Shown here one piece after another: positions 27,540 through 40,903 of a DNA stretch of 64,000 nucleotides (positions are counted from its first letter, which is position 1; every line of letters starts with the position of its first letter). This stretch comes from Bacteroidales bacterium UBA5206 (lineage in GTDB: Bacteria > Bacteroidota > Bacteroidia > Bacteroidales > Tenuifilaceae), in contig DHVO01000089.1 in assembly GCA_002412705.1 (NCBI GenBank), positions 5,636-69,635 on the forward strand, in the 5' to 3' direction. The notes beneath the pieces are model-generated. The model was not told the DNA's origin and made no database searches. It worked only from the letters and a program-made list of their open reading frames with translations. A program made the position numbers and the translations under genes.

Positions 27540-30500
27540 TTATCGGCTAAGGACTTCAACCTCAACTCGTCTGTTTTGAGCACGCCCCTGTTCTGTATCA
27601 TTAGATACTTTTGGTGTTGTGTTGCCCATACCCTTTGTGGTTAGATTACTGTAGCCTTTTTCTATTAAATAGCGGGCAACAGACTTTGCTCTTTCTTCTG
27701 AAATTGAGGTGTTGCTTAGCGCCTCAAGGTCATCTGAGTGACCTTGAATTTCAATTCTAACCGTAGGATTGTCCCTAAGGAGAGCTAGAAGTCGGTTGAG
27801 CTCAGCAACAGCCTCAGGACCAAGTTCAGCACTGTTACTGCCAAATGGTATGTTAAGCCCAATTTGCGAACCAACTGCAATGGGTTTAAGCATCACATCG
27901 CGGGTAACATTCATAAATGTGGTTACCTGGTTTAGGTTTAGGTTTTCCGACATGTACCAATACCCCTCAGCTACTACCTCAACTGCATAGTTGTCGCCAG
28001 CAAGGAACGAGAAACCAAAATCACCCGATTGTGCATTAGAGTAAACAGAGGTAATTGTTGTGTTATCGGTTGTGTTTACTAAGCTTACCCTTGCTCTTAT
28101 TGGGTTAAGTGTATTAGCATCTTTTACTGTTCCTCTTATATTGGTTCTTCTAACCTGAGCAACCCCTTCTGGTTGGTTCTCAAAGCCCTGAGCAAAGTTA
28201 ATACGTCTAACTTTCTCATCAAACACAAAGTTTACTTCAAATTGCTTGTAGCCATTAAATTGAACCATGAAGTTATTCTGGCGTAAATCAAAATTTTCGT
28301 AAAAGATGTTGTTAATGGAAACAGAATACCTATCGGTGACAGGGGCAAACAGAACAAACTCTCCATTCTTATCGGTTAGGGTAGAGTAGGAGCGCTTTTG
28401 GCTATCGGTTGCAACAATTCTAACATTTGAAACATCAATATTTCCAAGTCCCGATAGTTTACTCCTGTTTAATATGATTTTTCCAAATACTTTATTCTTC
28501 TCAACGTATGGAAAGTAGTAGTTTCCTGTAAAGGAGACCTTAAGGTTCGATTCTTCATTGGCCTTGCTGAATGTACCTGCATCATCTCCAACAGCATAGT
28601 AGTTTATAGTGTAGTTTCCTTCTGGAATATTCTCAAGAGTAACCCTGCCGTATGCATTGGATAGGAGTTGCGTGCTATAAAAATCGCCAGGAACGTACCT
28701 AGCCTCTTCTCCTTCTATTTTGTTAATCTCTACAAGAATATTTTTAATGCCAGGCTCATTCTGATCCTGAGTTAGGTTTCCATTAAAGTCTTTAAAAAAG
28801 ACCAGCTCAATGTCATGATACTTTACACTGGGGTGGTTTAAGTTAAACTCTTTACGAATTCCCGCTTCAAGGTAAAAAGTTTGGTACGATTGGGTTGCCT
28901 CGTAAATATCCTTCCTGTTCTGAAGAGAGTAAACACCAAGAGCTCGTACTAACCAATCATTTTTTAGGTGCCATTGCAGTTGAGCCGATATGTTTGAGTA
29001 GCTAGATTTGGATACTAAGTCGTTATTGTACGAGAGGCTTGCGTTAAGTTCTATTATGTTTTTATAGATATATGAGTCGTAGGAGGGCATTATCCTGATG
29101 TAATTAAAAGGCCTTGATGTGTAGTAATGGTTAATTAGCTCAAATACTGTCTTGGGGCCAGATATGTACGACGATATTAGGCCTATTTTTGATGAACGAA
29201 GATTTAAGCTAACCTCTTTGTAATTAAAGTTTTGTTTTCGTATGGACTCGTTATCGTCTCCTTCCTTAGATGGAGCTTCAGCAATGTAAGGAAAGCCTAC
29301 GGTTAGTCTTGGTGTTAATATTGTATATCCTCCTCCTAATCTAAATCGTGCACCTACCGAGACTTTGGGCGATATGGCGTTAAAAGGTACAGATTGCTCG
29401 TATCCCGAGAGGTTATTCCAAAGAAAATGATCTACTCCTGGTCCTCCAATAATCATTATTTTGGGTGTAAGAGCATGGAGGTATTCAATTGTAGAAACAC
29501 GGCTAAGCGACGAGCTTGTGTTGTTTCCTATGCCTGTAACATTATATTCAAATCGATACTCGGAGTATTGTAACCTTATGTTATTTCCAGTCTGTAAGTT
29601 ATAGTTTACATATAAGTTCCCATCAAATCGCCCCCTATAACTTCCTATGTAACTGGGTGAGCCATACTTCGCTCTTATGCTAGCCGAAATGTGGTTATGC
29701 CTTAAATTATAGACAAGTTCCGATCCAAAGCCCGTATGGTTTGTTTGCCCATTTATATTTTGGGTGTAAGTATTGTATGAGCCCATAATGCCAATAGATT
29801 GCGAAGAACCTATAGGGAAAGATGTTCTTGCGATGGCTAGATGAGAAGTTAAGGGATTATCCCCTTCTTTGTTGTTCAAAATGTATTCTGTTTCAAAAAA
29901 AAGTGCAGGCTTTGGCGAAAATCTAAATTTCCCAGAGTAATTAAAAAGGTCTAGTCGCAAGTCCTTGTTGGCTAGCAAAAAGGCGCTATAGCGTTTGCTT
30001 GTATATTTTACAAAAGCTCCTCTACCAACTAACGATACTTCACTTGACCTAAAATTGTCGCCCACTTCAAGTGTAAAGTTATTAATAGTTGCACCTAAAT
30101 ACATCCTATTATACTTATACAAATCTTCAGGTTCTCTTGATGTAAAATTCCTGTAGTAGAAAAAGAGTGATTTTCTTTCTTGTAAAAGAATATTCCCTTC
30201 GGCAAGAGCAGTTATGCCTGGAACCTCGTTTTCTTTAAGTAAACCTTGCGCTGTTACTTCTAGTACAAGAGGTTTTGAGGAGGGGGGTATATAGTTTATG
30301 TAATCGGATTCAAGCTTTTTAAACCATACATTTTGTTGATACATGGTATCTTGGGAGCTAACACGTAAATTTAGCTTATACATTGTTTTACCAAAGGAAG
30401 TAGTGTTAACCAACCTTATGTTAAACGATACAGAGGTATCGTTATATTCTTTTAGGGGAAAGTCTTTAACAAAAAGATTGGTTCCTCCTTCTATGGATAG

Positions 30501-31064
30501 GTCTGGATCCGATTCCATTGTAATGGTAATGAGCTCTTGCCTGTTGCCCTTATTTTCGAGAGTAAGGTTAAACGATGAAGTGCTCTTCTCTGGATCAATA
30601 AACCTAAATCGATCTATATTCTTTATTCTAAATCCTGATATTCGGGGAATCTTAACAAAACAGTACTCGTTTTTTATGGTGTTTCCTCTGCTATCGGTTA
30701 GTGAAGCAATAACACTATAACCAATATCACCTCTTGCTTCGCTCCCTACAGCAACACGAATAGGTATATAAATGGAATCCTGAGGTTCTATTGTAACCTC
30801 TCGTTTATCTTGACCTATAACATTCCAACCTTGAGGTACTGTAATGTTAAGGGTAACAACTTCTGTTCTATTGCCAGAGTTTTTTACTTTTAGTGCATTA
30901 AAGAAGCTTTCTTTTGCACTGGATGTAACATAGTGCTGTGCAAATGCTATTTCTAGCTTTGATGGCTCGTTATTATATAGAAAGTATTGGGCTGTACTAG
31001 AAAACGGAAAAACAGTTGCTAATAGCCAAAAAATGAGGTTTTTATATGATATTCTAAATCTCAT
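27540..31064 (-). CDS. 1174-aa outer-membrane protein: N-terminal beta-sandwich modules, internal barrel-like region, CarboxypepD_reg-like modules, C-terminal OmpA peptidoglycan-binding domain
   Basis: It has a signal peptide (FPFSSTAQ). Residues ~265-740 are rich in alternating hydrophobic/aromatic strands. Residues ~750-1055 hold three modules such as GRVTLENIPEGNYTI, DKNGEFVLFAPVTDRYSV and IRGTVKDANTLNPI. The OmpA_C signature is present (RIEIQGHSDD...ERAKSVARYL...NRRVEVEVL). Confidence 0.8.
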   Translation of the reverse strand: MRFRISYKNLIFWLLATVFPFSSTAQYFLYNNEPSKLEIAFAQHYVTSSAKESFFNALKVKNSGNRTEVVTLNITVPQGWNVIGQDKREVTIEPQDSIYIPIRVAVGSEARGDIGYSVIASLTDSRGNTIKNEYCFVKIPRISGFRIKNIDRFRFIDPEKSTSSFNLTLENKGNRQELITITMESDPDLSIEGGTNLFVKDFPLKEYNDTSVSFNIRLVNTTSFGKTMYKLNLRVSSQDTMYQQNVWFKKLESDYINYIPPSSKPLVLEVTAQGLLKENEVPGITALAEGNILLQERKSLFFYYRNFTSREPEDLYKYNRMYLGATINNFTLEVGDNFRSSEVSLVGRGAFVKYTSKRYSAFLLANKDLRLDLFNYSGKFRFSPKPALFFETEYILNNKEGDNPLTSHLAIARTSFPIGSSQSIGIMGSYNTYTQNINGQTNHTGFGSELVYNLRHNHISASIRAKYGSPSYIGSYRGRFDGNLYVNYNLQTGNNIRLQYSEYRFEYNVTGIGNNTSSSLSRVSTIEYLHALTPKIMIIGGPGVDHFLWNNLSGYEQSVPFNAISPKVSVGARFRLGGGYTILTPRLTVGFPYIAEAPSKEGDDNESIRKQNFNYKEVSLNLRSSKIGLISSYISGPKTVFELINHYYTSRPFNYIRIMPSYDSYIYKNIIELNASLSYNNDLVSKSSYSNISAQLQWHLKNDWLVRALGVYSLQNRKDIYEATQSYQTFYLEAGIRKEFNLNHPSVKYHDIELVFFKDFNGNLTQDQNEPGIKNILVEINKIEGEEARYVPGDFYSTQLLSNAYGRVTLENIPEGNYTINYYAVGDDAGTFSKANEESNLKVSFTGNYYFPYVEKNKVFGKIILNRSKLSGLGNIDVSNVRIVATDSQKRSYSTLTDKNGEFVLFAPVTDRYSVSINNIFYENFDLRQNNFMVQFNGYKQFEVNFVFDEKVRRINFAQGFENQPEGVAQVRRTNIRGTVKDANTLNPIRARVSLVNTTDNTTITSVYSNAQSGDFGFSFLAGDNYAVEVVAEGYWYMSENLNLNQVTTFMNVTRDVMLKPIAVGSQIGLNIPFGSNSAELGPEAVAELNRLLALLRDNPTVRIEIQGHSDDLEALSNTSISEERAKSVARYLIEKGYSNLTTKGMGNTTPKVSNDTEQGRAQNRRVEVEVLSR

Positions 31065-31066
31065 TT

Positions 31067-31621
31067 TTATGGGATGTAATTTATTGGGGATAAATTAATA
31101 GAAAGGCCTACAAGATAATAGCCGCTATCAAAGTTTAGTAAAGGCGCTGCTGTACCAAGCTTATAAGTTAACGAGAATTCAATAAGTACATTGCTGGTTC
31201 CATCTCCTTTAAGCATCCATACATCGGCAGTTGTAGGAGAAAAACTTGGAGAACTTATTTGAAGATTAGGTTCGCCTACTTGGTTTGTAATAACAGGTTC
31301 TAGTAGCAATGAACTTAGGGGAATAGAATCGGTTGGTGAGACTAGGGCTACATTATCTGCACTTATTGTAAGTTCCCAACCAGTACAACTAGAGTTATTA
31401 AAGTATAGTTGTACTTTACTCCAGCTAGTTAGGGTCACACCGCTATTAAGTTGGTCTAAAGTGCTTACTCTAAAAATGGCATTGCTTCCTTTTAGGATAG
31501 CAATTTTCGCAAATGGATCCTGAGCATATAGGTTTCCTTTGTTAGAGGAAAATACTATAAGCAAATAAAAACAGCCAAATAGGAAAAGGTGTTTACGGAT
31601 TTTTAACCAATGCGAAAGCAT
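31067..31621 (-). CDS. 184-aa secreted hypothetical protein (minor subunit/adaptor candidate)
   Basis: It has a signal peptide ending LYAQD. Its stop lies 2 nt from the start of the 1174-aa gene. The sequence is beta-rich and Ser/Thr/Leu-rich. I do not recognise the family. Confidence 0.6.
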   Translation of the reverse strand: MLSHWLKIRKHLFLFGCFYLLIVFSSNKGNLYAQDPFAKIAILKGSNAIFRVSTLDQLNSGVTLTSWSKVQLYFNNSSCTGWELTISADNVALVSPTDSIPLSSLLLEPVITNQVGEPNLQISSPSFSPTTADVWMLKGDGTSNVLIEFSLTYKLGTAAPLLNFDSGYYLVGLSINLSPINYIP

Positions 31622-31640
31622 TTTTATTATCTCGTATTAT

Positions 31641-31684
31641 AAAACTTGAAGCCAAACGGGTAACGCTCGGCTTCAAGTTTTTTA
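31641..31684 (-). terminator. Intra-cluster hairpin terminator/attenuator after the 197-aa gene
   Basis: Perfect 13-bp arms aaaacttgaagcc / ggcttcaagtttt with a 15-nt loop. Read on the minus strand it is followed by TTTTATAAT. Confidence 0.6.
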
Positions 31685-31732
31685 TTTAAAACTAGTTAGT
31701 CATTTATTTCAGCAGTGAAATAATAGAACTTA

Positions 31733-32326
31733 CTAAATTGGAACTACGTTAATAAATACATTGGTAACGTATGTATCTGATGCTAAGCTTTGCTCTAGTA
31801 GTGTTTGAGCATTCATCGATGCATTGGCAACAGTTCCCAACTCCCATTTAATATCAAAAGTATTAACAGTGCTAGAGCCAGCATCCACTGCAGATAGTAC
31901 TGCTGCAGTTGCTGTAGAAAGGCCTGTTACTGTTGCAACAGAAACAGTTGTTCCAGTTGCTCCACCCACATTGTCAATAAGATAACCAACGTTGTTAAGT
32001 GGCATCTGGTTTCCAGTTCCCCCTGCTGATTCATAGTTCATTCCATAGAAAGCAGCACTTTCTGAGTATAGAAGAACATTGAAGTTTCTTGATGAAGCAA
32101 CATTAAACCTAGTTGTATACCTTGGTGAGTTAGCTATACCAGTGGTATAGTCATCAATGGTATTAACTACAAATTGGATGTTACCCCCAGAGACTACGGT
32201 AAGCCTCAAAATTGAGTTTAGGGTTACAGATACTGGGATAACTGCGTTATCAGAAATCTGCCCAAACCCCACGTTTGCAAAAAGTAGCATTGCTACTCCA
32301 ATAATCATTTTCTTCATTTTCATCAT
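31733..32326 (-). CDS. 197-aa secreted pilin-like beta-rich protein (family not recognised)
   Basis: It has an SPI-type signal (LLFANVGFGQ) with no Cys lipobox. The mature protein lacks Cys and is rich in Thr/Ser/Ala/Val/Asn/Gly. It has alternating-hydrophobic N-terminal (AVIPVSVTL) and C-terminal (YVTNVFINVVPI) strands. Confidence 0.6.
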   Translation of the reverse strand: MMKMKKMIIGVAMLLFANVGFGQISDNAVIPVSVTLNSILRLTVVSGGNIQFVVNTIDDYTTGIANSPRYTTRFNVASSRNFNVLLYSESAAFYGMNYESAGGTGNQMPLNNVGYLIDNVGGATGTTVSVATVTGLSTATAAVLSAVDAGSSTVNTFDIKWELGTVANASMNAQTLLEQSLASDTYVTNVFINVVPI

Positions 32327-32473
32327 TTATTTAGGGTTGTTTATTACAAAGCCTAATTTGTTAAGTAAAAATATATTAAAACCTTTGTTTCCTATATACT
32401 AATAGCACTTTTTTATTAAAAAAGTTGCCTTTTTTTGATTAAAAGCGTTGTTTTATCTGCTAGGTAAACGTTT

Positions 32474-34357
32474 TTAAGGTTCAACCTTAAATCCAATTAC
32501 TAAGACATCATCTACCTGAGGGTAAGTGTCTCCCATCCAATTCTTCATCTCAATTTTGAGTCTCTCCCGTTGTTCTGCAGATGGCAGAGAATGCAGGTTT
32601 ACAAGTAGTTCGGTGAAATTTTTTATCATATACTTTCTACCCTCAGTTCCACCAAACTGATCTATAAATCCATCGGAGAAGATGTAAAACCAAGTAGGCG
32701 ATTCTACTTTTATTTTGTGTGTGGTGAATTTCACATTCTGTAAATTCTCCGTTCCACCCCCAATAGAGTCCTTGTCTCCTCTAATTCTATAAGCCTCTCC
32801 GTTTGCTACATATACAACAGGGTTCTTAGCTCCAGCGAATTCAACGGTGTTTTCTGCTTTGTTTATTATGCATAGAGCCATATCCATACCGTCGCGATTA
32901 TCGGTTTCATCCTGTCGTAACGTTCGCCTAATACCTTTGTTCAGTTCTAAAAGTGCATCAGCGGGGTTGTGAATTCCTTTTTCTATTATTTCATCGAGCA
33001 AGTTATAACCAATCATAGAGAGGAAGGCTCCAGGTACTCCGTGACCAGTACAATCAATTGCAGAAATAGCAAACTTATCCTCGGCGGGATTGTATATGTC
33101 GGAACCATTTAGAATAATTGGTCTAAACCAATAGTAGTCTCCACTTACAACATCTCTTGGCTTAAAGAATATAAAACTGTCGGGAAGGAATTCTTGCAAG
33201 TAATTTTGTGCAGGGAGTAAAGCTTTCTGAATTCCCTGTGCGTAGTTTATACTTTTTGTGATATTCTCATTCTGCCGTTGTATTTGGTCTTTTTGTCGTT
33301 GAATTTCATAGTTCTGCTCGCTTAATTTTACATTTGCCCTCTTTTTGTCCTTGTAGTTTTTGTAAACAACAATTGCGAGCAGGGTTAGCAGCAATAGGAA
33401 TATTGAAATGGAGTATATAATCATTTGCTGGGTTCGCTCACGAGTTTTCTGCTCGCTAATCTGAACTTCTTTTAATTCTCTATCCTTATTAATAAGGTCA
33501 ATCTCAATTTGTTGTTGTCGAGCTACCTGTTCTGCTTGAAAAAGGCTGTCCTGCTTTGCCTTTACTACAAACCCTAACGAGTCCTCCTTTGCTTTGGACA
33601 TTAGCTTTTGGTACTCTAACTCTAGCTGTTTTGCCATGCGCTCCATGCGCTCTTTTTCTGCCTGAACCTGAGTTTTACCAACAATTTCCTCGTATTCAAC
33701 CTTTACTTGTTGAGTGGCTAAGTGCTGTTCTACACTGGCAAAAAGGTTATTGTACTCTGAGGCTTTTTTAGTGTTGCCAATTCGTTCGTAGCAGTTTGCA
33801 AGGAGTCTAAGGCAGTTTAATGTTAGGCGAGGATTACCTACCTTTTGCGATAGTTGGTATGCTTCTTCAAGGAGTGGAATGGCTTTTTCAAATTGATTCT
33901 GTACCGTCAATAGGTAAGCCACATCAATTAATCCAGCGGCAATATCTGCTTTATTGTTGAGTTTTCGCCTAACCTCTAGGCTTTTGTTAAAATAGTCTAA
34001 GGCTAGGTCTAGCCTGTCAAGATCTGTGTAAATGAGACCTATGTTACTATATATGGCCTTAATATCGTTGAGGTTCTGTACCTTCTCGTTAAGAGGAACA
34101 GACTCTAAGAAATAGTTAACAGCCTCGCGTAAGGCACCATGTTCCCAATAGATAAAGGCAACCTTATTAAGGTAAAAAATAGTTTGTTGCAAATTGCCTG
34201 CTTGCTTGTATCGTTGTGCAAGCTCAAGGAAACGCTCAATTTCGGCTTGTTTTTCTTGGGGGATAGTAACAATGTTTTGGGCTGGACTAATGCCATTTCC
34301 TAGCATTAGTAGAAGGAATAGAAAGAGTTTAAAAAACAGAGCCCTTATGTTAGCCAC
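32474..34357 (-). CDS. Sensor phosphatase: signal peptide, TPR domain, coiled coil, TM segment, PP2C/SpoIIE domain
   Basis: 627 aa with TPR repeats in the N-terminal half and a TM segment MIIYSISIFLLLLTLLAIVVY. SpoIIE-type motifs are present: SGDYYW, DCTGHGVPGA, DGMDMA, FSDGFIDQFGG and DDVLVIGF. Confidence 0.85.
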   Translation of the reverse strand: MANIRALFFKLFLFLLLMLGNGISPAQNIVTIPQEKQAEIERFLELAQRYKQAGNLQQTIFYLNKVAFIYWEHGALREAVNYFLESVPLNEKVQNLNDIKAIYSNIGLIYTDLDRLDLALDYFNKSLEVRRKLNNKADIAAGLIDVAYLLTVQNQFEKAIPLLEEAYQLSQKVGNPRLTLNCLRLLANCYERIGNTKKASEYNNLFASVEQHLATQQVKVEYEEIVGKTQVQAEKERMERMAKQLELEYQKLMSKAKEDSLGFVVKAKQDSLFQAEQVARQQQIEIDLINKDRELKEVQISEQKTRERTQQMIIYSISIFLLLLTLLAIVVYKNYKDKKRANVKLSEQNYEIQRQKDQIQRQNENITKSINYAQGIQKALLPAQNYLQEFLPDSFIFFKPRDVVSGDYYWFRPIILNGSDIYNPAEDKFAISAIDCTGHGVPGAFLSMIGYNLLDEIIEKGIHNPADALLELNKGIRRTLRQDETDNRDGMDMALCIINKAENTVEFAGAKNPVVYVANGEAYRIRGDKDSIGGGTENLQNVKFTTHKIKVESPTWFYIFSDGFIDQFGGTEGRKYMIKNFTELLVNLHSLPSAEQRERLKIEMKNWMGDTYPQVDDVLVIGFKVEP

Positions 34358-34874
34358 TTCGTAATAATTAGTTATTGTAAAAATTACTTAAAAGTAATAA
34401 ATGTTGGTTACATGCCGCTTCTAATCTTACAAAAAATGATTTTTGCACTTATTTTTTGACAAGTGATACTTCTTTTAATTTGCTTTGCGCATTTCTATAC
34501 ACTAGTTCCCTTTCCTTGAATGAACTCAAGTTGTTTTTAATTTATTAATGGTTATATTATTAAAAACAAACGTTAGACATAGGTTTGTTGTTTCTAATTA
34601 TTCTTTTTTTAGTTTTCATAATGTATTTTTCATTCTTGTAATGCTGAAGGCTTTTATTTTAATCAGCAATTTATTATACTGCTGTGAATAAGTGCTATAC
34701 TTTGGAGTAGTGCTTTTAAACTCATCTCTTTTGAACGTTTGCCATAAGTAAGGTAAGGTTTGTCAATAAATGCTTCAATTTTATTGATGGTTGCCTCTAA
34801 TTTGCCCAGTTTTTGCTACTATTGTTATTGATTTGCTAATTGTATATCTTTACCAAGATACTATTACCCATTTT

Positions 34875-35738
34875 ATGAAGCGTTCATCCATATTGTCATT
34901 TTGCGGAGCATTGCTTATGATGGCTCCTGTTCATGGTTTTTCTCAAGACTTTGAGGTTGCTCCAGTAAACCTTGAGTTTAACGCAGAACCTGGTGAAAAT
35001 CAGGTTAAAACTATAAATGTGAGGAACCATAGTAATCAGAAAACTTCATTTATGGTGACTCTTTCCGATTATCTGCCTAAGGGCGATGGTGGAAGGGAAT
35101 TTTTGCCTCCAAATTCAACCAAGCGCAGCTGTGCCAATTGGATGAATATAAACCCTAGTTTCTTTGAGCTAAACCCAGGCGAGGAGATGGCATTGCAGAT
35201 TGGGATGCTGGTTCCTGGCGAAGAGTATGGTGCGGCATGGGCTATGCTATTTATTCAGCCAACCCGTGAGCAAACCAGTTGGAGTGCAGAGGGAACTCTT
35301 GGTGCAGGTGTTATGGTAAGTGGACGGATTGGTGTTACAATTTCGCAAACACCAAAATCGAATGCAATAAATTCTGTTAAGGTTACTAGTTTTAGTGAAG
35401 ATGTAGCATCAAGTGGAAGCGATCGTCTTTTTAATTTGTCGTTAGATAACCTTGGTGAGAGAATAACTAAGTGTAAGGTGTTTCTTGTTGCATCAAATAT
35501 GATTACTGCAGAGGAGAAACAGTTCCCTCCACTTGAGATAGAAACATTCCCTAAAGCCACAAGAAACGTGCAGCTAACGCTTCCCGCAGGCCAACTTGCT
35601 CCTGGGAAGTATGCTCTTGCGGCCATAGTTGATTACGGGCCTAAGTATGCACTAGAAGGGGCTCAAATTGTTATTGATATTAAGGATAGTGGCACACAAC
35701 CAGTCCAACCCGATACTCTAACTCCTCCAACAGAATAG
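34875..35738 (+). CDS. Secreted two-module Ig-like/beta-sandwich protein (chaperone candidate)
   Basis: The ORF is 34791..35738, and the ATG at 34875 gives signal peptide MKRSSILSFCGALLMMAPVHGFSQ. There are two ~120-aa beta-sandwich-like halves (VAPVNLEFNAEPGENQVKTINVRNHSNQKTSFMVTL... and VKVTSFSED...FNLSLDNLGERITKCKVFLV...). Confidence 0.55.
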   Translation: MKRSSILSFCGALLMMAPVHGFSQDFEVAPVNLEFNAEPGENQVKTINVRNHSNQKTSFMVTLSDYLPKGDGGREFLPPNSTKRSCANWMNINPSFFELNPGEEMALQIGMLVPGEEYGAAWAMLFIQPTREQTSWSAEGTLGAGVMVSGRIGVTISQTPKSNAINSVKVTSFSEDVASSGSDRLFNLSLDNLGERITKCKVFLVASNMITAEEKQFPPLEIETFPKATRNVQLTLPAGQLAPGKYALAAIVDYGPKYALEGAQIVIDIKDSGTQPVQPDTLTPPTE

Positions 35739-35761
35739 TTTCTGTTAAGTATGCTGAGATA

Positions 35762-36925
35762 ATGCGAAAATTAGCACTCATTGGTTTTATTGTTATATGC
35801 GCTGTTGCTAAAGGCCAAACAAATTTTCTTATTTCTAAGTATTTCTCTTCTGGAAATATTTCTGAGGCGATATGGATTAAGGTAATTAACAATGATACCA
35901 TATACCATGGACCTTACACTAGTTACTACCCAGAGGGGAAAGTAATGCAGGAAGGTTTTTACTATGAGGGGGCTCCCGATAGTATATGGCTTACCTACCA
36001 TCGCTTTGGAGCGAGGAAATCCATGTTTACATTTAAGAAAGGGTTACGTTCTGGCGAATTTAAGTTTTGGTATGAGGCAGGGGGGCTATACCAACATGGC
36101 TACTACCAAAACGATTTACTCAATGGAACTTTAGTTACATACCATCAGAATGGCATCGTTGATTCCGAGTCTAACTATTTGAATGGTGTCCTTAACGGTT
36201 CAAGCACTGTGTATAGTAGTGAAGGGATAGTAAGGCTTAAACTGAGCTATGTAAACGGATTGGAAGATGGACCTTGGGAATCCTTTTTTGAAACAGGAGA
36301 GCTTAATTATAAGGGGCAGAAAAAGGAGGGGCGCTTTGTTGATACCCTGTATACTTTTTACAAAAACGGGCAAGTTCAGCGTAAGGCATACTATAATAAT
36401 GGTATAATAATAGGCTCAATGATAGGGTACTATCCAGATGGAACTATAATGAATACCATGACATATAGTAATGGTGAAATATCGGGAGTCTATTCATCCT
36501 TTTATCCCAATGGAGGCGTTGCCGAGATGGGGAATTATGCCAATAGTAAACGGAATGGGTTATGGAAAAGTTATTTCCCTAGTGGTGCCGTAAATAGTTA
36601 TGGCAATTTTGTTAACGATTCGCTTGATGGCCTATGGACTGTTCTATATGAGAATGGAGGCTTAAGACAGAAAGGTTTCTATGTAAGTGGCAACAAAATG
36701 GGGGAGTGGCAATTCTATAATAGTAGCGGACAATTTGTTATGCAAGGGTTTTACTGGGATGGTTTGCCAGAAAATGTTTGGACTATCTTCTATCAAAATG
36801 GTAGAATTGCGGGGAGAGTAGCATTTATGCGAGGTAGGCAAATAGGTGCAGCATATCTTTATAGCGAAGAGGGGTTGATTAATAAAACCTTACATTTCAA
36901 AATTCCAGAGAACTTTTCGAAGTAG
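35762..36925 (+). CDS. MORN-variant repeat protein (YwqK-like repeats), secreted
   Basis: 387 aa with a signal peptide ending AKGQ. It has more than 10 tandem ~23-aa repeats of the type G.W..YY.NG....G.Y.NG...G. Confidence 0.75.
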   Translation: MRKLALIGFIVICAVAKGQTNFLISKYFSSGNISEAIWIKVINNDTIYHGPYTSYYPEGKVMQEGFYYEGAPDSIWLTYHRFGARKSMFTFKKGLRSGEFKFWYEAGGLYQHGYYQNDLLNGTLVTYHQNGIVDSESNYLNGVLNGSSTVYSSEGIVRLKLSYVNGLEDGPWESFFETGELNYKGQKKEGRFVDTLYTFYKNGQVQRKAYYNNGIIIGSMIGYYPDGTIMNTMTYSNGEISGVYSSFYPNGGVAEMGNYANSKRNGLWKSYFPSGAVNSYGNFVNDSLDGLWTVLYENGGLRQKGFYVSGNKMGEWQFYNSSGQFVMQGFYWDGLPENVWTIFYQNGRIAGRVAFMRGRQIGAAYLYSEEGLINKTLHFKIPENFSK

Positions 36926-39214: not shown

Positions 39215-40903
39215 CTAAAAAGCGTAGCTTACTCCAGCCATAATATTGAACCTCTGCATTGGGTAACGGTAGTAGTGTGAATACTTTGATGCCGCTATGT
39301 TATTAATGTCAAGAAATGCACCTAAACGCCTATTGTAGTTGTACTGTAGGCCTATGTTTACATCAACTAAACCGTTTAGCTCTGTGATAGGATTAGCGAT
39401 GTCGGCAGTTTTCGCAAATCGTTTCCCTTCGGCAATGATATCAAAGTTTACAAGTATTTTATCGCGTAGGTTATACCTAACAGATAGCTGTCCCTCTAGT
39501 TCTGGCTTGTGCCAAGGTTTCTCTAGTTCCTTCATCTTGAACGATTGGTACTGTCCCTTAAGAAAGAAACTTAGGCTGCTTGATGCCGCTATGGTTAGCT
39601 CTCCAACAAATCGGGTTTGTGTTACGTTGTCGGTTTCAACATCAAAGCGGTTAAATAGCGGGTTGGTTGGGTCTATAGATGTGTTTACGTAAAAGTACAT
39701 GCTATCGACAATGGAGTAGCTAGCAAAGGCGTTGTATGAAACGTTTGAACTGAAATTTCCCTTTACGCCGCCCACTAGGTTCATTTTATGGTTGGTGTTG
39801 AACACATCGATACCTGGAACAACCCATGGATTCTCATTAAGAATCTTATCGTAGGAGTTCTCTTCTAATCGGCCCGACATCTCTACGTAGGGTATTAGGT
39901 AATGGCTAATAATATCGTACGATAGGTGAGCGATAGGGTAGAAGAAGGTGTTCTTTTGGTAGGAGTTGGCATCGTATAGGTACTGAACTCCAGCTTTAAC
40001 GCGCCATTGTTCGCCAAAAAGACCTATCCAAGGTGAGAATTTGATTATTGTATTGTTGATTGAATCTAGTTTCTCATTCTTGGCAATATGCTTAATGGAT
40101 AGGTCAAGGCCCACTCGCTCTGTTTTAAAAAACTTATCGGCGCTGACGTTAATTCCAATGGTGTTTTGCTGCATGCTAAAGTTGTCGGCAAAGTACCTGA
40201 AGTTGCTGGATACGGCGTAGTTGTAGTGGGTAGAATCGGTATGGGTTGAGTGGTACCCTAACGCCGCATCAAGTTGGTTAAACTTCTGCTTGCTATCCTG
40301 ATTGTTTAAATCGGCAGTTGGGCTTGAGGTATCGTAACCGTAGTAGGTAAATCCCTTGTTGTTATACTCAAGGTCGCCCCATAGAAGCGAGTTGCTAAAT
40401 ATCCTTTTCCCAAACAGGTTGATTGCGGTGCGGCTGTAATCGGCATCGCTTTTAACTCCGTTATCTAGCTTTATTTTACCAAAGGATGATTTGTGCTTTA
40501 GCCAGCCACCAAACACGTTATTGTTGCTTCTAAGCTGGTTTACGTATAGCTCAGCCAGTGGCGATGTGTATGTACCAATTCCTAGTCGTACGTATCCCAT
40601 GCGAAGCTTACTTTGCGGCTCGGCAACCATTCTGGCAGGGGTAATGGGATCTACCCGTAACCCTGGAATCATAGGTCTTGACGCTAGGGTATAGGTGAAC
40701 TTGGGTACTATTTTTAGCGTGTCCTGCACCCTTGGCATTTGGTTTAGCTTAAAAGCATCGGATATAGTTGGTTCGTAAGGTCTTACAACCTGAACCTGCT
40801 TTGTGAGCTTGTCGTCCTGAGCCGATGAGGCAAAGGTGCCTAAAACAAAGGCCGTTGCTAAAATGCTTTGTAGTATGTGTGCTGTAGATAATTTCAATTG
40901 CAT
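39215..40903 (-). CDS. Outer-membrane beta-barrel protein (putative porin family)
   Basis: 562 aa with a signal peptide ending SSAQ. It has an alternating aromatic/hydrophobic strand pattern throughout and a C-terminal AGVSYAF with terminal Phe. Confidence 0.6.
   Translation of the reverse strand: MQLKLSTAHILQSILATAFVLGTFASSAQDDKLTKQVQVVRPYEPTISDAFKLNQMPRVQDTLKIVPKFTYTLASRPMIPGLRVDPITPARMVAEPQSKLRMGYVRLGIGTYTSPLAELYVNQLRSNNNVFGGWLKHKSSFGKIKLDNGVKSDADYSRTAINLFGKRIFSNSLLWGDLEYNNKGFTYYGYDTSSPTADLNNQDSKQKFNQLDAALGYHSTHTDSTHYNYAVSSNFRYFADNFSMQQNTIGINVSADKFFKTERVGLDLSIKHIAKNEKLDSINNTIIKFSPWIGLFGEQWRVKAGVQYLYDANSYQKNTFFYPIAHLSYDIISHYLIPYVEMSGRLEENSYDKILNENPWVVPGIDVFNTNHKMNLVGGVKGNFSSNVSYNAFASYSIVDSMYFYVNTSIDPTNPLFNRFDVETDNVTQTRFVGELTIAASSSLSFFLKGQYQSFKMKELEKPWHKPELEGQLSVRYNLRDKILVNFDIIAEGKRFAKTADIANPITELNGLVDVNIGLQYNYNRRLGAFLDINNIAASKYSHYYRYPMQRFNIMAGVSYAF

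Follow-up and report, generated by a model that had tools for sequence, protein, structure and literature searches.

What kind of surface structure would be assembled from a divergent gene block that encodes a giant outer-membrane protein of 1174 aa, two small secreted proteins of 184 and 197 aa, a sensor phosphatase, a two-domain immunoglobulin (Ig)-like protein and a MORN-repeat protein? This block occupies positions 27540-36925 of a 64,000-nt stretch of contig DHVO01000089.1 from Bacteroidales bacterium UBA5206 (Tenuifilaceae), which we call the window. An earlier reading of the same DNA (here, the original prediction) had described the block as following chaperone-usher (CU) logic with non-canonical parts. 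Our results support this description, with none of the four outcomes that it had listed as refuting it being obtained, and no part of the block matches the Pfam families PapD_N, PapD_C, Usher or Fimbrial. The original prediction had missed both the link of the block to the TLP-1 fibrils and the paralogy of its two small proteins. We conclude that the locus probably encodes a TLP-1-type donor-strand-exchange pilus together with a dedicated export and assembly apparatus.

TLP-1a and TLP-1b (PDB 9IKJ and 9IKK; CryoSeek) are fibrils from pond water that are known from cryo-EM (PMC11494351). The N-terminal donor strand of each TLP-1 protomer is inserted into a neighbouring protomer in these structures, with protomer n+4 acting as the donor and the tubule consisting of four separate donor-strand chains (PMC11494351). 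The authors could name no organism, found no matching sequence in their own mass spectrometry and metagenome data, and knew of look-alikes only as unannotated entries of the AlphaFold database (PMC11494351). A follow-up preprint of 2025 offers no further information on where TLP-1 comes from, and neither a source organism nor a gene or assembly machinery for it is reported in the searchable literature. When the AlphaFold2 model of the 197-aa protein was compared with the PDB using Foldseek, TLP-1b (9ikk) ranked first (E 7e-5, query TM-score (TMq) 0.55) and TLP-1a (9ikj) third (E 3e-4, TMq 0.58), with CfaB, CS17, CupE, SafA, CsuA/B, FimA, EcpA, cannulae and the Tafi pilus next, so nearly all top matches are fibres built by donor-strand exchange or complementation. 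The two fibrils were also the sole matches of a broad profile of 116 sequences of the 197-aa family among the 177,635 sequences of the PDB (TLP-1b, E 0.0039; TLP-1a, E 0.012), with an alignment that spans the TLP-1 donor strand and the strands that follow it. A narrower profile of 80 sequences and the single window sequence did not reach TLP-1 in the PDB, and single-sequence searches of the PDB with the 197-aa and the 287-aa two-domain protein returned nothing meaningful.

We used the 59 TLP-1b residues covered by the profile alignment to scan metagenome contigs of the Joint Genome Institute (JGI) and found 31 loci with proteins that are 63-75% identical over this stretch, plus one at 49%. The protein of locus L103, one of these, aligns with the full length of the mature TLP-1a chain (E 8e-79), and the chain seen by cryo-EM starts at the Gln right after its predicted signal peptide. 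Neighbouring genes whose products carry C-terminal domains of the type IX secretion system (T9SS) place the TLP-1 contigs in Bacteroidota. Hidden Markov models (HMMs) of the window families recognize the products of these loci as major subunit (1e-13 to 1e-17), minor subunit (1e-6 to 1e-8) and chaperone-like two-domain protein (1e-32 to 1e-41). On every long TLP-1 contig, the major gene is followed by a minor-like gene and then by a giant-like gene of 1171-1201 aa; this order of the three genes was recorded for L103, L108, L110, L115, L107 and L122, and a homolog of the 287-aa protein is encoded upstream of the major gene in L103, L108, L096, L117 and L121. The giants of the two clades share only about 20-28% identity; nonetheless, hhalign aligns the window giant family with the TLP-locus giants at a probability of 100% (E 1e-41, 859 columns), and their barrels alone at 95.8% (E 7.5e-9). 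Given that subunit, minor, chaperone-like and giant genes are homologous and stand in the same order, the window locus is a diverged ortholog of the TLP-1-encoding cluster, and these comparisons lend good support to a TLP-1-type identity of the fibre family. As a separate observation, these six contigs, which come from metagenome and NCBI collections, show that near-full-length natural relatives of TLP-1a and TLP-1b occur in public freshwater metagenomes.

Window and TLP-1 loci thus have in common the pilin family, a conserved N-terminal donor strand directly behind a signal peptide that ends before Gln, and the gene order chaperone-like, major, minor, giant. They differ in the length of the mature subunit (about 175 residues in the window versus 236 in TLP-1), in the orientation of the chaperone-like gene, which is transcribed divergently in the window clade, and in three additions of that clade: the MORN protein, the TPR-PP2C regulator and the OmpA domain that its giant carries. 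That these three are clade-specific accessories and not core parts of the system had escaped the original prediction; the TLP-1 loci contain neither a detectable MORN gene nor a PP2C phosphatase gene. The features of the window locus are collected in Table 1.

Table 1. Genes, protein segments and nucleic acid features of the locus, in window positions
Feature	Position	Strand	Basis or description
SiaC-family phosphoprotein gene, 125 aa	26138-26515	-	Pfam SiaC 1.9e-36, 124.8 bits vs cut-off 24.5
Giant outer-membrane protein, 1174 aa	27540-31064	-	ORF check
OmpA_C peptidoglycan-binding domain of giant, aa 1074-1165	27570-27845	-	Pfam OmpA 2.5e-15, 57 bits vs cut-off 27.2; >60 PDB OmpA-like domains match
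Barrel region of giant, aa 266-740	28845-30269	-	26 long antiparallel strands (model), pLDDT mostly >90, small insert aa 593-650
Two N-terminal Ig-like domains of giant, aa 37-256	30297-30956	-	two beta-sandwiches in AlphaFold2 model
Minor subunit (predicted), 184 aa	31067-31621	-	ORF check
Hairpin between major and minor genes	31641-31684	-	18-bp stem, dG -32.4 kcal/mol, z -6.9, 0/200 shuffles as stable
Major fibre subunit (predicted), 197-aa precursor	31733-32326	-	ORF check
N-terminal extension codons (aa 23-39, QISDNAVIPVSVTLNSI), predicted donor strand	32210-32260	-	conservation and TLP-1 alignment
TPR-TM-PP2C sensor phosphatase, 627 aa	32474-34357	-	ORF check
Divergent AT-rich intergenic region, 517 bp	34358-34874	.	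GC ~0.335
Two-domain Ig-like secreted protein, 287 aa	34875-35738	+	ORF check and homolog starts
Secreted MORN_2-repeat protein, 387 aa	35762-36925	+	ORF check
ORF, open reading frame; TM, transmembrane; pLDDT, predicted local distance difference test.

All six ORFs of the original prediction are present with the same coordinates and strands, as are the 517-bp divergent gap and the strong hairpin between the genes of the small proteins, which folds at about 31641-31681; its TPR/PP2C, MORN and OmpA domain calls were confirmed by Pfam and NCBIfam. The length of 315 aa that it had given for the two-domain protein needed correction: this is a TTG-extended ORF, and the homologs start at the ATG at 34875, which leaves 287 aa.

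Several properties of the 197-aa protein suggest that it polymerises by donor-strand exchange. It has a signal of the signal peptidase I type with a predicted cleavage site ahead of the conserved Gln23. The AlphaFold2 model (pLDDT 82.8) consists of a beta-sandwich core at aa 40-197 with values above 90, whereas aa 1-39 are unstructured in the monomer (pLDDT ~55). The best-conserved segment of the entire protein, QISDNAVIPVSVTLNSIL with its alternating hydrophobics, lies within this disordered part. Across the family alignment both ends are highly conserved and the middle is variable and rich in indels, with a mean column identity of 0.71 over residues 23-39 versus 0.34 over residues 90-155; conserved ends around a variable middle are the pattern of a polymerising surface filament. 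The hydrophobic residues that alternate in the N-terminal extension are I30, V32, V34 and L36, and the family profile aligns this extension with TLP-1 residues 6-20, which form the beta1 donor strand. The N-terminal strand of a TLP-1 homolog was likewise disordered in a monomer model (PMC11494351). From the conservation of the extension and its alignment to TLP-1 beta1, we infer donor-strand polymerisation of the major subunit. The expectation of the original prediction that this protein is not a self-contained fold agrees with the model and the alignments: its 16 most conserved N-terminal residues are disordered in the monomer model, align to the TLP-1 donor strand and are the very segment that its 184-aa paralog lacks. 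The original prediction could assign neither small protein to a family, and neither matches any Pfam or NCBIfam family, Fimbrial families included.

The paralogy of the two small proteins became apparent when the 184-aa family, which we gathered from syntenic ORFs, was aligned with the family of the major subunit (hhalign probability 99.4%, E 2.8e-21, 175 columns). This alignment contains a 14-residue gap exactly at the N-terminal extension, and the distance from the Gln at the cleavage site to an xGG motif is 10 residues in 37 minors versus 24 in 113 majors. Profile comparison hence shows that the 184-aa protein and the major subunit are paralogs and that the former lacks the N-terminal extension. 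With an acceptor body and no strand to donate, it could only sit at a non-donating end of a chain, and we predict that it serves as a cap or initiator. The minors of the TLP-1 clade carry a Cys-containing N-terminal segment and further Cys residues (L103:10046-10771, L107:1094-1795 and L110:10795-11556); those of the window clade lack the extension outright. At the position of the hairpin between the major and minor genes, 40 of 54 related loci have a stable structure (z <= -3). A simple terminator scan did not flag the window hairpin because its U-run lies inside the stem, and it is likely to be an intra-operon attenuator or mRNA stabiliser that gives a high ratio of major to minor subunit.

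Homologs of the 197-aa protein number in the hundreds in metagenome bins of Bacteroidales, all unannotated, and its family forms 370 clusters among 1.84e9 representative proteins. When one genome was scanned for each species, 96 species turned out to have relatives, mostly bins of Bacteroidales, Tenuifilaceae and Salinivirgaceae, from which we fetched 80 loci for scripted ORF calling and BLASTP. The giant gene lies downstream of the major gene in 57 of the 60 loci with enough downstream sequence, and all 57 have an ORF of 167-216 aa between the two, the stop of which precedes the giant start by a median of about 9 nt (2 nt in the window, as originally predicted). Of 56 loci, 43 have the genes of the two-domain and MORN proteins as a pair upstream and one further locus has them downstream, and the PP2C gene sits immediately upstream of the major one in 44 of 56; some loci, such as L003 with no chaperone-like gene, have subunit and giant genes only. 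The divergent layout is kept at loci that share only 30-40% protein identity with the window. All-against-all clustering revealed no other widely shared neighbour except a SiaC-like gene (within 10 kb in 29/83 loci). Synteny, on which the original prediction depended, is therefore strong and extends to the second, distant clade of the TLP-1 loci. A cultured carrier is Perlabentimonas gracilis M08_MB (locus L038), which has the phosphatase, major, minor and giant genes on a contig that ends before the expected position of the chaperone-like and MORN genes. Two further arrangements were seen at individual loci. In 22 of them (e.g., L005:13759-14196), an ORF of about 131 aa with a lipoprotein-like N-terminus directly follows the giant gene; it is absent in the window, where dapF takes this place. 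The distant locus L088 (L088:6504-7791) has two extra pilin-family genes upstream (214 and 209 aa) and no minor gene between major and giant, which suggests variable subunit repertoires.

In the AlphaFold2 model of the giant protein (pLDDT 84.2), the signal peptide is followed by a pair of Ig-like domains, a barrel of 26 strands, three to four Ig-like or transthyretin-like domains (aa 749-1060) and an OmpA domain. The barrel that the original prediction had placed at aa 265-740 thus reappears in the model at aa 266-740, and this region ends in ...YLEAGIRKEF, which resembles a beta-signal. Ushers are the best barrel-containing matches of the giant in Foldseek (FimD, 1.2e-9 to 2e-8; PapC, 7e-8), along with LptD (2e-8) and TonB-dependent receptors (~4e-7). 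Sequence searches point to no usher: Pfam has no Usher match for the giant or for a barrel-only profile, and in the PDB the latter matched only porin fragments (E 0.004), a porin-like signal that speaks for a pore. The Pfam matches of the giant are OmpA, CarboxypepD_reg and SdrD_B. Its N-terminal Ig domains give weak Pfam and NCBIfam matches to FixG_C, NPCBM_assoc and choice_anch_T as well as Foldseek matches of the ASH/CEP192 SPD-2 type, and this region is the most conserved part between window giant and TLP-locus giants (BLASTP 1e-14 to 1e-19). An even number of strands together with a periplasmic OmpA domain would put the N-terminal Ig-like domains in the periplasm too, where they are a candidate docking site. 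Based on this modelled architecture, we predict that the giant is an usher-like platform for translocation and assembly. The OmpA domain takes up only the last ~100 residues of the 1174 and is missing in the giants of L007 and L089 and in those of every TLP-1 locus (e.g., L007:10001-13453, L089:11113-14334 and L103:10804-14319), which makes the peptidoglycan anchor an accessory of the window clade. The TLP-locus giants end instead in a conserved segment of about 120 aa that has no Pfam match; a resemblance to SPOR-type peptidoglycan-binding domains seen by eye is unsupported by Pfam.

Three features make the 287-aa protein a candidate periplasmic chaperone: it is predicted to reside in the periplasm, it consists of two Ig-like domains, and its gene is linked to those of the subunits in both of the distant clades. 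Among the 61 members of its family, Cep192_D6 was matched by 59, MSP by 57 and OCRL ASH by 53, all below threshold, and PapD_N or PapD_C by none. The PapD/MSP-like fold expected by the original prediction is consequently backed on the MSP/ASH/Cep192 side and not on the PapD side, in both cases from sequence. A profile search of the PDB with this family returned no CU chaperone and only a marginal match to the ASH-repeat protein FAP47, while one JGI annotation names a family member "P pilus assembly chaperone PapD". The 287-aa protein also aligns weakly over both of its domains with the N-terminal Ig domains of the giant (hhalign E 3e-4, probability 40%, 186 columns; not significant in BLASTP), which may reflect a shared origin or only a shared type of fold. 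The adjacent MORN protein (Pfam MORN_2, 1.2e-30) has orthologs with 30-33% identity beside the chaperone-like gene in L005 and L007, and in the window clade its gene accompanies the chaperone-like gene in 43 of 43 cases, often overlapping it. It may act as an accessory or scaffold.

The 627-aa phosphatase (Pfam TPR_12, 2.6e-21; SpoIIE, 2.2e-15) has one transmembrane helix and probably regulates the cluster. In its C-terminal half it is similar to SiaA (NCBIfam 4e-51, with 174 bits below the equivalog cut-off of 700), and the window also encodes a SiaC-family protein outside the block, 1 kb beyond the giant gene and past dapF, which scores 76 bits against an NCBIfam equivalog cut-off of 150. 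In relatives, the SiaC-like gene often adjoins the MORN gene or lies downstream of that of the giant. In Pseudomonas, aggregation and CupA fimbriae are under the control of Sia signalling. The window shares with SiaABCD of Pseudomonas aeruginosa a SiaA-like PP2C and a nearby SiaC-family protein, but its sensor part is a periplasmic TPR domain and its NCBIfam scores are far below the equivalog cut-offs; we saw no SiaB kinase or SiaD cyclase in the window, where no systematic search for either was made. The pairing of a SiaC gene with a SiaA-like PP2C suggests a partner-switch regulator in which the SiaC protein is the probable substrate or partner of the phosphatase. The divergent intergenic region is presumed to hold the promoters of both arms; sigma-70-type matches were no commoner in it than in shuffled sequences, in a scan that does not cover Bacteroidota promoters.

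How close does this bring the locus to known pili? Like the classical CU systems Fim and Pap, it combines an abundant major subunit predicted to have an N-terminal donor strand, a minor one without it, a hairpin that follows the major gene, a large barrel in the outer membrane with predicted periplasmic beta-sandwich domains on either side, and a periplasmic protein with two Ig domains. Among structures that contain a barrel, FimD and PapC match best, and the subunit's list of matches is full of CU pilins. Unlike in these systems, the barrel is modelled with 26 strands instead of the 24 of ushers and with no evident Ig-type plug insert, the giant has extra C-terminal domains and a peptidoglycan anchor, and a MORN partner is present, while the TLP-1 fibre is a four-chain tubule with n+4 instead of n+1 donation (PMC11494351). 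No part of the locus has detectable sequence homology to classical CU components: hhalign probabilities against the E. coli proteins were 0.9% for the 287-aa family with FimC, 0.1-0.3% for the giant with FimD and 0.4% for the major subunit family with FimA, and with all of them below 1% we reject canonical CU membership. Alternate and archaic CU pili likewise have small donor-strand subunits, of which CfaB and CS17 match best once TLP-1 is set aside (E 2.5e-4 to 2e-3) and CsuA/B and CupE match too, but the TM-scores are low (0.33-0.34) and in sequence neither their subunits nor their chaperones or ushers are related to the parts of the locus.

The signal peptides of the five secreted window proteins all end before a conserved Gln (GFGQ, LYAQ, STAQ, GFSQ and AKGQ), the first two being those of the 197-aa and 184-aa proteins, which the original prediction had correctly described as signal peptidase I substrates without a lipobox. 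N-terminal pyroglutamate on exported proteins is a habit of Bacteroidota, and a Gln after the cleavage site fits it. No lipobox, T9SS C-terminal domain or other export signal was found in the proteins of the block, so a dedicated route across the outer membrane is needed. A reading of these proteins as T9SS cargo was rejected, with no Pfam match to the sorting domains Por_Secre_tail or CHU_C in any of the six; domains of this kind were seen only in unrelated neighbours at the TLP-1 loci.

We propose that Sec exports all five structural proteins and that signal peptidase I cleaves them before the conserved Gln, as shown for TLP-1 and suggested for the window by alignment. The 197-aa subunit, according to its modelled fold, would then be a beta-sandwich with an open cleft and a free conserved N-terminal strand, and its cleft would be kept capped in the periplasm, most plausibly by the two-domain protein with its MORN partner. 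The giant would provide a barrel and periplasmic Ig domains in the fashion of an usher, tied to peptidoglycan by OmpA. The minor subunit, with a cleft and no donor strand, would probably prime this pore and become the distal cap. Further subunits would pass through the barrel, each incoming N-terminal strand filling the cleft of the previous subunit, and the chains, judging from the homologous TLP-1, would come together in a helical tubule with a width of about 8 nm. The ratio of subunits may be set by the hairpin behind the major gene, and the TPR-PP2C sensor and SiaC-like protein may control production. The chances seem about even that all this amounts to an unrecognised pilus pathway of Bacteroidota, a functional analog of CU systems that builds four-chain TLP-1 tubules with its own 26-strand pore and a chaperone without sequence homology to PapC or PapD. 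In the searchable literature, of which subscription-only articles were not covered, we found no description of this cluster, of a CU-like system or of TLP-1 genetics in Bacteroidota.

Several observations weigh against this proposal. The window subunit is only distantly related to TLP-1, with 13-14% identity in a structural alignment and an HMM E of 0.004 to a chain derived from density, and the tie between window genes and a fibre rests on sequence and models. TM-scores to ushers are low (target TM-score (TMt) 0.24-0.37) with LptD and TonB-dependent receptors close behind, so that the term "usher-like" rests on overall architecture, and an Ig-type plug domain is not evident in the secondary-structure string of the giant. 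All Pfam matches of the 287-aa protein are below threshold, and it has no sequence relation to PapD or FimC. The chaperone-like and MORN genes are absent within 10 kb in 12 of 56 loci. The minors of the TLP-1 clade have a different, Cys-rich N-terminus and not simply a shorter one, and a four-chain tubule with n+4 donation is not obviously explained by a one-pore usher model.

Some of these points favor the main rival, a matrix fibre that, like TasA or archaeal cannulae, polymerises outside the cell without a chaperone, with the giant serving as pore, anchor or nucleation site, the extension-less minor as a cell-proximal nucleator, and the two-domain and MORN proteins acting elsewhere in the envelope. 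Cannulae, the Tafi pilus and related fibres are among the Foldseek matches, no sequence homology to PapD was found, the 12 loci mentioned above have no chaperone-like gene nearby, and the four chains of TLP-1 (PMC11494351) suit lateral assembly outside the cell more easily than extrusion from one pore. In a diderm, however, a subunit with an open cleft must cross the periplasm without polymerising, the linkage of a chaperone-like gene to the subunits in two clades whose giants have diverged so far is hard to explain if it has no role, and the minor and giant genes are tightly coupled. We therefore consider chaperone-free self-assembly rather unlikely and prefer a pilus with a dedicated assembly apparatus. 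It is much less likely still that the block encodes an envelope-stapling or S-layer-like complex, in which the giant would tie the outer membrane to peptidoglycan with the small proteins as accessories and no fibre would be made. The giant has a bona fide OmpA_C domain, its C-terminal part (CarboxypepD_reg plus OmpA)—and only this part—resembles PorE and the CHU_0125 "outer membrane integrity" proteins of NCBIfam, and the 287-aa protein has a very weak NCBIfam match to a putative S-layer protein. Yet OmpA is dispensable, being absent from the distant giants named above, the small proteins are homologous to a real extracellular fibril, and the conservation pattern of the major subunit is that of a polymerising filament. 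A variant of the type V pili (FimA, Mfa1)—the only pilus class established in Bacteroidota, which also polymerises by strand exchange, here from lipoprotein precursors by proteolytic maturation and with the giant unrelated—is extremely improbable and was rejected: the 197-aa protein is Cys-free, as originally predicted, and hence has no lipobox, no FimA/Mfa-type domain was matched in Pfam or NCBIfam and no type V pilin was among the top 50 Foldseek matches, the predicted donor strand is N-terminal and conserved beside the signal peptidase I site where the mature TLP-1 chain starts, and a dedicated barrel protein is encoded whereas type V pili have no usher.

As for the genomic setting, the claim of the original prediction that the block is richer in AT than its flanks holds against gyrB (GC 0.35-0.40 vs 0.44-0.46) and fails against dapF (0.36-0.38), and the AT-richness of the block is modest. 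In relatives, the block keeps its synteny with gyrB, dapF and the SiaC-like gene; conservation of the gyrB and dapF synteny shows that it is not a recent island, and horizontal acquisition as an island is ruled out. No tRNA genes and no Rfam families at threshold were found across the whole window (1-64000). Adjoining gyrB is a gene for a 562-aa protein (39215-40903, minus strand) that matches TonB-dependent receptors only weakly and at their C-terminal end; L001 has a counterpart of 557 aa, likewise next to gyrB. The protein probably belongs to the outer membrane, is uncharacterised and has no connection with the cluster.

Through these genes, TLP-1 as an orphan high-resolution fibril structure is tied to a conserved gene cluster of Bacteroidota and becomes a tractable system, for which a cultured carrier exists in Perlabentimonas gracilis M08_MB. 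If our interpretation is true, it would give this orphan cryo-EM structure its first genetic identity, machinery and regulators, and Bacteroidota would have a second kind of pilus beside type V. The CU principle would then either reach to very remote homologs or have arisen twice, and the system could count as a new class of pilus assembly if its machinery is confirmed.

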